Part shown: in pieces, positions 54,901-57,900 of the stretch | Layout: every line of letters begins with the position of its first letter | Position numbering within the stretch: the stretch's first letter is position 1 | IMG/VR virus record: IMGVR_UViG_2684623127_000007 | Source: a virus | Taxonomy: Duplodnaviria; Heunggongvirae; Uroviricota; Caudoviricetes | Strand: one strand, 5' to 3' | DNA: 64,000 nt | Program-made: the position numbers

Positions 54901-57900
54901 AACAGTCAACTGCCTGAATTGTGAGGCATTTAACATTTCACTGTCCGGTGTCTTTCCTGTAATAAAAAGCCCGCAAAAGAGAGTCAGGGCAGATAAGTGT
55001 GGTGTGGTGCGTTGTACTGGATTCGAACCAGTGACCGATTGCTTAGAAGGCAATTGCTCTGTCCGGCTGAGCTAACAACGCAGAATACCGATAATGGACC
55101 GCCACCGGGGACTCCGAATCTCGCACAGGGTGACGTTCTTTCCTGATGAGCTAGTGGCGGTTGGTGGCCCTTGCTGGATTTGAACCAGCGACCTGGCGAT
55201 TATGAGTCGCTCGCTCTCACCGCTGAGCTAAAGGGCCGATTGCTGAATAATAACGACGCATGATTAACTCCGCAATCTCATCCGTTACGAATGATTAAAT
55301 CCTGTACTTCCCGCACCGTCTGCTCAAAACGTTCAGTCTCCAGTTCAACGCCAGTTGCACGACGTCCCAGCGCCATCGCTGCTTTCACTGTCGACCCCGA
55401 CCCCATGAAGAAATCTGCAACCAGGTCTCCCGGACGACTGCTTGCGCTGATTATCTGCTGCAACATTTCTGCCGGTTTTTCGCACGGATGTTTCCCTGGA
55501 TAGTACTGCACCGGTTTATACGTCCACACATCGGTGTACGGCACCTGCACCGTCACACCGAAATACCGCCGCAGATGCTTATATTCACTCTGCAGCTCCG
55601 CATACTGTCGGTTCAGAGAGGCATACGTATCCACCAGCTGGTGGTGGGGCTTTCCAGTTCACCCCGCTGATGCTTCTCTTCTGCCACCCGGGCAAACAGT
55701 GCCTGTAATTTCAGATAATCGCTTTCGTTCGGCAGCTGCCACTGACCGGCACTGAACCAGTGCGACACCATGTTTTTCTTTCCTGTGGCATCTGCAATCT
55801 GTTTTGCCGTTATCCCCAGGACAGCGCGCGCATCACGAAAGTAAGCAATCAGCGGGGCCATCACATGCTGTTTCAGTGTCCTACCCTTCGCCTCATACCC
55901 GGCATCTTTCGGACGATACGGCCCCTGATAATGCTCTGCGAACAGAATGCGCTCTGTGGCGGGGAAATACGCCCGCAGGCTTTCCTTGTTGCACCCGTTC
56001 CAGCGTCCGGACGGCTTTGCCCAGATGATATGGTTCAGCACGTTAAACCGCTCACGCATCATGATTTCGGTGTCAGATGCCAGACGATGGCCACAGAACA
56101 GGTAAAGACTTCCGGCAGGTTTCAGCACCCGCCAGAACTGCGCAAGACACTGGTCCAGCCACTTCAGGTAATCTTCATCACCCGCCCACTGGTTATCCCA
56201 GCCCTCGGGTTTCACTTTGAAGTACGGCGGGTCCGTGACTATCAGGTCAACAGAATTTTCGGGTAACGACCGCATAAATTCCAGGCAGTCGGCGTTGATT
56301 AACTCACAACTGGATATTTTTACAGTATTAAGCATGGATCATTAAGCCTGTCTCTGATAGGCTCATTCTGCTTTTGCGCAAAGCAGTGGGCCTGAGGTTT
56401 GCTTGTGAACCCAACGCATGAGCAGATGGCTGGTGGGTGCCCCTTACACCCACCAGCCGCCCATTTACCACAAATAAAAAAGCCTTCAGGACTGAAGGCG
56501 TCTGTAACAACCAAACTGATAGTCTGCCAGACCCGCCATAACCAGCTGGGTCAGTATTAACTGGCAGCGTTCGCGTGAAAGGTAAGTATTCTGCGCAATC
56601 TCCCCGACTGTCGCCGGGTCGGTAACGCTTAATTCATTAAACACCACTCTGGCGGTTTCTGTCATATCCTGCTGTTTCAGCATGTCTTTTTCCCTTTTCC
56701 GGTTAACGTGACACACCAATAACTCTTGTCGAAAAAGCCAGCAACCTGAAAGAACGGTATTAATAACCACCAGCGAATTTATTGCGCTGCTGTATATTAC
56801 GGACACAAAAAAACCACCTTCCGGTGGCTTCCTTGTGCGAAAAAACTTGCATTTCGCCTCGCGATACAGCTTTGCGAAGCTTACAGGAATTCAAGCTGTT
56901 TCTGCGTAAAAAAGCAAGCTTTTTTTATCGAAATGAATCGTGCATAGGTACATAAAGCATGTGTTCAGCCACGGCTAACCAACCTGCAATACGTTTCTCA
57001 CATGTGCTGAAACACCATTCCGGGTGAGTACGATTTAAACATTCTGCCATTTTTCTCTTACTCATTCCCCGTCCTTCGTACCTTTGCCGGAGAATATTGA
57101 TTAGCCCGGGATATTCCCCAAGCACCTCACTGATAACGCGATCAATAATCAACGCCTCTGTGTCTGTACAATGTGACAACCAGCTCTTCTGCTTCCCTCT
57201 GGTCATATCCCGAAAAAATGCCTCAAGTTCCGGTTTTTCCAGCCCGGATTTCTTCATGCTGCGTAAAACCTCATTAACTGCTGTTTTCGTCAGCTTTTTC
57301 GAAACCAGTAACCGGTTAAACATATTTCCGGATTTACCCCCACCGATATACGACCACCGCCCCCACATCCGTAATTTCCCCTGGATCCAGACTGCTTCCA
57401 GCGTGTTCAGGCGTAAATGTTCGCCGCTTTTGCCTGTAATTTCCGGATATATCATATTTACGCTCACTCACTCTCAATTTTGTAAATCTTCACACCCAGC
57501 CGTCCACCAGATACTGGCTGACCACGTACAATATTGATTTCATCAAACTGCTCATCGTCCATTAACACTCCCGCATGCGTCAGCGCATCCAGCGGTGCTT
57601 TCAGAATATTGTCCAGGTCACGACGACGCTTATCCGGTGGCTCTGCAATAATTTTTATTGCCAGCCGTCCGGACAGGCTTAATTTCAGTCGCTGCTGGCG
57701 AACAATAAGCACCACTGCCCGGCGATAACGCTCCCCGGCTTTTGATACAAAATATGTGCTGCCACGGCGTCGCCAGTAAGTGTTCACCGTCGGCGGGTAA
57801 GGTAAAACCAAATCTATGAGCATCAGTCACCTCTTTTACCCGAGCACGCCAGTCGCAAAGGCGTGATCAAGAAAACGAAAAATTAAATCAACCTGGGAAC

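Follow-up and report, generated by a model that had tools for sequence, protein, structure and literature searches.

Two overlapping reading frames on the minus strand

The stretch of DNA analysed here (the window) consists of 64,000 nucleotides of the IMG/VR virus record IMGVR_UViG_2684623127_000007, and the element in question is a DNA methyltransferase (methylase) gene on its minus strand that is split into two open reading frames (ORFs). The first ORF occupies 55613-56335 and encodes 240 amino acids (aa), the second spans 55278-55634 (118 aa when read from a GTG codon), and the two overlap by 22 bp in different frames. Motif IV (DPPY) is located at 56222-56233 in the N-terminal ORF and motif I (FFMGSGST) at 55389-55412 in the C-terminal ORF, which correspond to residues 35-38 and 309-316 of the protein obtained when the reading frame is repaired. 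Both ORFs matched the Pfam family PF01555 (N6_N4_Mtase), the N-terminal one over profile positions 1-106 of 221 (E = 3.6e-17) and the C-terminal one over positions 121-220 (E = 1e-24), and these complementary matches far exceed chance. A sequence-only reading of the window had described a methylase split in this way, and the coordinates, the 22 bp overlap and the placement of the two motifs were all borne out; the junction string that it quoted, AGCCCCACCACC, was found in the window. The same reading had pointed out that a cognate restriction gene was missing, and none was found nearby, the neighbours being a DUF1133 gene, a 65-aa ORF, two tRNA genes and an esterase gene.

The motif order (DPPY in the N-terminal part, then the target recognition domain (TRD), then FxGxG in the C-terminal part) and the significant profile match are those of a beta-class amino-methyltransferase, and in the PDB the closest solved structures belong to beta-class methylases, among them RsrI, CcrM and MboIIA. 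The frame is not intact across the two Rossmann halves, given a 1-nt deletion at codon 229 and a stop after 240 codons. Since there is no intact reading frame, the locus is regarded as a pseudogene of the beta-class family and not as a functional member.

A one-base deletion in a short A-run

Where intact homologs read GGAAAAGCCCC, the window reads GGAAAGCCCC, that is, a run of four A residues (A4) has been shortened to three (A3). Alignment with intact alleles placed the A3 run at 55651-55653 on the minus strand (TTT on the plus strand). When the 1058-bp window gene was aligned with four intact phage homologs of 1059 bp the deletion appeared as a single gap (CTGGAAAAGCCCC to CTGGAAAGCCCC). 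Compared with the intact O157:H7 allele WP_000935548.1 (strain TR01) the lesion is the sole difference in the whole gene, and re-insertion of one A restores that allele exactly. The deletion turns codon 229 from AAG (Lys) into AGC (Ser) and puts translation out of frame, and after native residue 228 there follow 12 aberrant residues, SPTTSWWIRMPL, and a TGA stop at 55613-55615. The 5' fragment of the pseudogene (55613-56335, minus strand) consequently carries native residues 1-228 plus these 12 out-of-frame residues and the 3' fragment (55278-55634, minus strand) is in frame with native residues 235-352.

The sequence-only reading had placed a possible frameshift near a C/G homopolymer. The frameshift itself was confirmed but its site was not, since the lost base belongs to the neighbouring A-run, just 5' of the C-run, and the C-run is unchanged. 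The CCCC run beside the lesion (55646-55649, minus strand) is the same in intact and frameshifted O157 alleles and is kept in three of the four aligned phage homologs, phiP27 having CCA at this position. The longest homopolymer anywhere in the gene is 5 nt.

Relationship to M.EcoGI and M.EcoGII

The repaired protein was compared with the 349-aa methylase WP_000935536.1 from an O104:H4 prophage, an accession that could be either M.EcoGI or M.EcoGII, and 327 of the 349 residues were identical (94%) in an alignment without gaps. M.EcoGI and M.EcoGII are 349-aa prophage enzymes of the O104:H4 strain C227-11 that share 333/349 residues, and both are orphans (PMC5778455). Orphan status is therefore normal in this family, and the lack of a restriction partner at the window locus is not peculiar. 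High identity to the O104:H4 enzymes and a position in a lambdoid prophage late region without a restriction partner were both found for the window gene, and by these sequence comparisons the locus is very probably a pseudogene of an M.EcoGI/M.EcoGII-family orphan N6-adenine methyltransferase. Besides being an orphan and having the beta-class motif order and 94% identity over 349 residues, the window gene shares with this pair (PMC5778455) the prophage order antiterminator, small ORF, methylase, tRNAs and esterase. It differs in that the window copy would have 352 aa if repaired, with three extra C-terminal residues, and is broken at codon 229.

M.EcoGII is sold as a commercial reagent. It methylates adenine whatever the sequence context, and both M.EcoGI and M.EcoGII are silent in the lysogen and are thought to be turned on by induction of the prophage, while constitutive expression of the two enzymes harmed the cell (PMC5778455). 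In methylomes of Shiga toxin-producing Escherichia coli, homologs with 92-94% identity were classed as "nonspecific, M.EcoGI/GII" and were inactive under normal growth (PMC6602927).

A megablast search against phage genomes returned 157 records, the best of which were Shiga toxin (Stx) phage genes annotated as single 1059-bp (352-aa) DNA methylase coding sequences. The best phage match, at 93% nucleotide identity, was the methylase of phage 1720a-02, a homolog that is also named in the M.EcoGI/M.EcoGII paper (PMC5778455). The methylases that stand beside ileZ-argN-argO and stx in Stx phages (1720a-02, Stx2a phages and phiP27, where the gene is L24) resemble the window gene in their length of 1059 bp and in their location between Q and the tRNAs, and are 83-93% identical to it at the nucleotide level. 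In these phages stx lies 3' of the tRNAs, whereas the window prophage lacks stx and has just two tRNAs. The intact O157:H7 allele WP_000935548.1 resides in the same prophage at ompW (for example in strains TR01, CEC13002, E32511 and TW14359), with a 1.2-kb locus identical to that of the window except for the lesion; unlike the window it has one more A (A4) and a continuous 352-aa ORF. All the homologs examined were single fused ORFs of 349-352 aa.

Predicted consequences for the protein

An AlphaFold2 model of M.EcoGII has been published, in which the Rossmann fold comprises residues 1-134 and 260-349, a four-helix TRD residues 160-237 and the dimer interface residues 97-110 and 116-140, and the enzyme elutes as a dimer (PMC11551740). 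Because the alignment is free of gaps, the M.EcoGII residue numbering can be transferred directly to the window protein. These boundaries place residue 229, where the frame shifts, in the last TRD helix. The 240-aa product retains DPPY in the N-terminal Rossmann part, together with the predicted dimer interface and the greater part of the four-helix TRD, and lacks residues 260-349, i.e. the C-terminal Rossmann half including the FxGxG motif that binds S-adenosylmethionine (SAM). Since the SAM-binding half is lost, the product is predicted from the model to be catalytically inactive, as a protein without this half should be.

Function might still be kept if a -1 shift by the ribosome or by RNA polymerase joined the two frames, or if the two fragments reassembled as a split methylase. 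Between them the two ORFs do encode residues 1-228 and 235-352, so that only about 6 native residues are missing, the break is in the TRD and not in the Rossmann core, the 3' part of the gene has no further mutations, and natural two-subunit methylases occur among the C5 enzymes. The details of the junction are difficult to reconcile with such a rescue. No slippery heptamer of the form X_XXY_YYZ was found in the overlap zone of the 0 and -1 frames, the signal on which programmed -1 frameshifting would depend, and 0-frame heptamers were found only at gene positions 369 and 840. No Shine-Dalgarno-like sequence was found in the 20 nt upstream of GTG 55634, which is the sole in-frame start nearby. 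A natural split methylase would have its own start with a ribosome-binding site and a conserved split, and the split is not conserved, the homologs examined being fused. Transcriptional slippage would require a run much longer than A3. For a mutation that is probably younger than about a century, the absence of further decay is no surprise. Programmed frameshifting, reinitiation and a split enzyme were rejected on these grounds (no heptamer, no Shine-Dalgarno-like motif, fused homologs), and retained function is in our view very unlikely.

Distribution of the frameshifted allele

An 81-bp query spanning the junction was searched against 5,426 complete E. coli genomes. The exact window sequence (A3) was found in 25 records and the same allele plus one base (A4) in 328, and paralogous alleles with about 92.7% identity were present in about 817 records, all the sampled rows of which span 82 nt and are thus A4. 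A broader protein collection contained the exact 240-aa product on 98 contigs and the intact protein on at least 999. The A3 copies are labelled "DNA-methyltransferase, frameshifted" by PGAP/RefSeq.

Long-read assemblies often contain single-base errors in homopolymers, and the interruption might accordingly have been a miscall in a gene that is really intact. However, 25 complete genomes share the identical deletion, and these were produced by several laboratories and in several countries with PacBio or with Oxford Nanopore polished with Illumina reads. The deletion is also found on the 98 contigs from public assemblies, and its distribution tracks phylogeny and not sequencing platform. The probability of a sequencing or assembly artefact is thus negligible. 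Resequencing of the junction, by which the split was to be checked, has in effect been done already, as the 25 independent complete assemblies have the same frameshift and no continuous ORF.

Single-nucleotide polymorphisms (SNPs) in the prophage were tried as a measure of clonality. A cluster of 5 SNPs split two A3 genomes from two A4 genomes, yet many A4 genomes share the window haplotype over 5.4 kb. The prophage region was therefore too invariant for judging clonality, and published core-genome lineages were used instead. These were taken from Table 2 of Miyata et al. (PMC9997748), which assigns 35 closed clade-8 genomes of O157:H7 to core-genome lineages and includes 14 of the 25 A3 genomes. 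Among the five closed genomes of lineage SG8_31B, A3 was found in four (2017C-4109, 61_150228, 27_141091 and ATCC 43889), the fifth, 28RC1, being outside the searched collection. Ten of the 11 closed SG8_32/33 genomes had A3 (CEC13091, CEC01311, CEC01302, F690, F765, H52_982342, ECP17-46, CEC03102, 08-3918 and 272). The allele was found in none of the seven closed SG8_31A genomes, of which CEC13002 was checked directly and has the intact gene, and in none of the 12 closed SG8_30 genomes, TW14359 among them. Thus A3 was present in 14/14 informative SG8_31B/32 genomes and in 0/19 SG8_30/31A genomes (p about 1e-9 from the raw counts), although the mapping of the allele to one branch matters more than the raw p value.

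In the remaining SG8_32 genome, CEC08123, the ompW site is empty and ompW is intact, with trpA-yciG-yciF-yciE-ompW-yciC uninterrupted (NZ_AP026110.1, 2045000-2049000). The ompW prophage, effector genes included, is missing altogether from this strain, which lost it and did not revert to A4. No reversion to A4 was seen among the 14 informative genomes, and among the closed genomes no A4 allele was nested within SG8_32. Lineage SG8_32 arose from SG8_31B, and SG8_31A and SG8_31B split around 1931 (PMC9997748). Strain 2017C-4109, which branches early in SG8_31B, already has A3. Three New Zealand A3 strains with ERL designations are consistent with the New Zealand SG8_31B sublineage described in the same study (PMC9997748), and NE122, F3398, 3-5-1, H6437, AR-0427, PA2, PA8 and NCCP 14541 were placed solely by a near-identical 24-kb prophage haplotype. 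A single deletion on the stem of SG8_31B followed by vertical inheritance is the simplest explanation of this distribution.

The sequence-only reading had offered slippage-controlled phase variation as the alternative to inactivation. Applied to the A-run, A4 would be the ON state and A3 the OFF state of a reversible, phasevarion-like epigenetic switch. The change does fall in a homopolymer, and both A3 and A4 occur in O157:H7 in otherwise identical 1.2-kb sequences. The Type III mod phasevarions of Haemophilus, Neisseria and Helicobacter are similar in that a methylase ORF is broken by a change in repeat length, but there long simple-sequence repeats switch within a clone, whereas the present tract measures 3-4 nt and descent has fixed its state. 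Known phase-variable mod genes have far longer repeats than the 4-nt tract at this locus, and the longest homopolymer of the gene, at 5 nt, is short as well; no long simple-sequence repeat was found, and the ON and OFF states are not interspersed among close relatives. Furthermore, A3 is confined to one monophyletic sublineage (14/14 versus 0/19) whose sister lineages separated around 1931 with no reversion, and the sampled paralogous alleles from the roughly 817 genomes are all A4. The family is also reported to be silent in lysogens, so that switching would leave the methylome of the host unchanged (PMC5778455). With the A4/A3 tract lying outside the C/G run and an allele that follows phylogeny, phase variation is extremely unlikely and this part of the sequence-only reading was not upheld.

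Origin and significance of the pseudogene

Taken together, the locus is with high probability a fixed, lineage-inherited pseudogene and neither an on/off switch nor a sequencing error. The suggestion that an orphan beta-class amino-methyltransferase had been inactivated by a frameshift is thereby supported, by the 1-nt deletion, the stop codon and the predicted loss of the SAM half. According to the literature and to the position of the gene, intact members would lie 3' of a Q antiterminator and an intrinsic terminator, being silent in the lysogen and switched on at induction, and the intact enzyme would then methylate adenine in any context and might shield the DNA of progeny phages from restriction in the next host. 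In the window, one A was lost from the 4-nt A-run at codon 229, giving 12 wrong residues, a stop and a product that lacks the SAM-binding half. The mutation probably arose once, on the stem of clade-8 SG8_31B, the ancestor of SG8_32/33, and would have been passed on by vertical descent since. It is best explained as decay, whether neutral or mildly beneficial, of a gene in a prophage that is harmful to the cell if constitutively expressed (PMC5778455).

Several points weigh against this interpretation. Strain 28RC1 of SG8_31B was excluded from the 14/14 count, and a documented lineage exists for 14 of the 25 A3 genomes, the other 11 having no assignment in Table 2. Non-specific activity has been shown for M.EcoGII only, and for the 94%-identical O157 allele it would be carried over by analogy. 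The inactivity of the product is deduced from the loss of the SAM-binding half. Finally, no late promoter for Q-dependent expression was located at the locus.

The truncated N-terminal protein could also have acquired a new role, either as a dead heterodimer partner that inhibits co-resident M.EcoGII-type enzymes or as a DNA- or RNA-binding protein. Most of the helix-turn-helix TRD is still present in the fragment, as is the predicted dimer interface (97-110 and 116-140), and M.EcoGII elutes as a dimer (PMC11551740). The A3 genomes also hold further homologous copies, with matches at 2-4 places per record, and an intact paralog is carried by the matching tandem Stx2a phage in NCCP 13914. Selection has however left no trace, for instance in the form of similar truncations that arose independently, and pseudogenes are common in the ompW prophage (a fimbrial gene, a DUF1076 gene and an insertion sequence (IS) insertion), which fits simple decay. 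A new role is therefore highly improbable. The same judgement applies to its most specific form, in which a 240-aa fragment made on induction would poison M.EcoGII-type methylases, which are dimeric, from co-resident prophages and among them a neighbouring Stx2a phage. This form is most doubtful; if true, it would change which phages exit with protection from restriction in the clade-8 sublineage with the frameshift.

For a fixed pseudogene the significance is small, as the family has already been characterised and RefSeq already flags the locus as frameshifted. The 1-bp deletion provides a clean and stable marker of the O157:H7 clade-8 SG8_31B/SG8_32 sublineage, which is only a small added value. 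In predictions of methylomes or of phage anti-restriction for these strains this copy should be scored as dead, but the paralogs in other prophages remain.

Gene order and late-region features of the ompW prophage

The methylase locus belongs to a lambdoid prophage at ompW in E. coli O157:H7, as read from the context in the matching strain NE122. Positions 39001-64000 of the window are 100% identical to NE122, 27 mismatches were found over 27010-39000, and the left ends differ. In NE122 the ompW prophage also carries paa and hokD, and its far end contains nleA, nleH1-2, nleF and espM1. This prophage presumably corresponds to Sakai prophage Sp9.

On the minus strand the order of genes and features is RusA, a Q-like DUF1133 gene, the 65-aa ORF, a terminator-like hairpin, a leader, the methylase, two tRNAs and the esterase. 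The gene order agrees among the window, the O104:H4 prophage (rusA, antiterminator, small ORF, methylase, tRNAs, esterase) and the Stx phages. The DUF1133 gene (56925-57455, minus strand) is a candidate Q-like late antiterminator, with a strong match to PF06576 (E = 1.1e-110) and a weak match to Phage_antitermQ PF06530 (E = 1.4e-08). In the homologous prophages and phages that were compared, the conserved 65-aa ORF (56486-56683, minus strand; WP_000917750.1), with the sequence MLKQQDMTETARVVFNELSV..., stands directly 5' of the methylase gene; the annotation of its counterpart L23 in phiP27 is TrmB-family regulator, and elsewhere it is listed as hypothetical. A hairpin resembling an intrinsic terminator, GCCTTCAGTCCTGAAGGC followed by the T-tract TTTTTTATTT, was recognised by consensus match at 56472-56499 on the minus strand and is predicted to function as such. 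The stop codon of the 65-aa ORF overlaps this hairpin.

No sigma-70-like promoter was found within 54900-57600. The gene order, the match to the terminator consensus and the reported silence of M.EcoGI and M.EcoGII in lysogens suggest that the methylase is expressed on a Q-antiterminated late transcript. The 137-nt leader between the hairpin and the methylase start (56336-56471) is strongly structured (175-nt fold, -70.8 kcal/mol, z = -4.1). Within this fold GGCTGGTGGGTG...CACCCACCAGCC pair as a perfect 12-bp stem at about 56430-56460.

Directly downstream of the methylase are two tRNA genes on the minus strand (55005-55237), an arrangement also seen in Stx phages. The one at 55162-55237 has the anticodon CAU and was called Met by ARAGORN and Ile (ileZ-type) by PGAP, and the one at 55005-55081 is tRNA-Arg with anticodon UCU. 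The window thus has two phage tRNAs versus three (ileZ, argN and argO) in most Stx phages. No stx genes were found between the tRNAs and the esterase (54482-55004), and this part of the window is an stx-less relative of the Stx-phage late region. The esterase gene beyond the tRNAs encodes 617 aa and is sialate-esterase-like. Rfam searches identified an STnc100 small RNA (sRNA) at 54687-54895 on the minus strand (175 bits, E = 3.8e-41) and an AgvB-type anti-GcvB sRNA at 54626-54685 on the plus strand (56.6 bits versus a gathering score of 56), with a weaker AsxR match. Both sRNA genes are located between the tRNAs and the esterase, which is the position of stx in Stx phages.

An insertion of the IS1203/IS629 type of about 1.3 kb was found at about 59448-60759, between hokD and a DUF968 gene. 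Besides the window, NE122 has this insertion and so, apparently, does F3398, the one further genome that matched over the full 25 kb in one piece; 2017C-4109 and CEC13002 lack it. Two other genes of this prophage, at about 62433-62966 and about 26.9-27.5 kb, are annotated as pseudogenes in the matching genomes, one for a fimbrial protein, with a frameshift and an internal stop, and one of DUF1076/NleG-like type, with a frameshift. Given these two pseudogenes and the IS insertion, simple decay of the prophage fits.

Positions 1-12873 of the window are not chromosomal backbone but the early region of a second lambdoid prophage in tandem. Besides an integrase gene (about 11546-12832, plus strand) it encodes an excisionase, repressor-like proteins, a replicative helicase and a DUF968 protein, and positions 1-89 contain the last part of a Q gene on the minus strand. 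This region is 100% identical to NCCP 13914, where it belongs to an Stx2a phage in which Q is followed by the small ORF, a methylase paralog that is intact (352 aa), three tRNAs and stx2a. Just beyond position 1 of the window there may thus be an intact paralog and stx2a.

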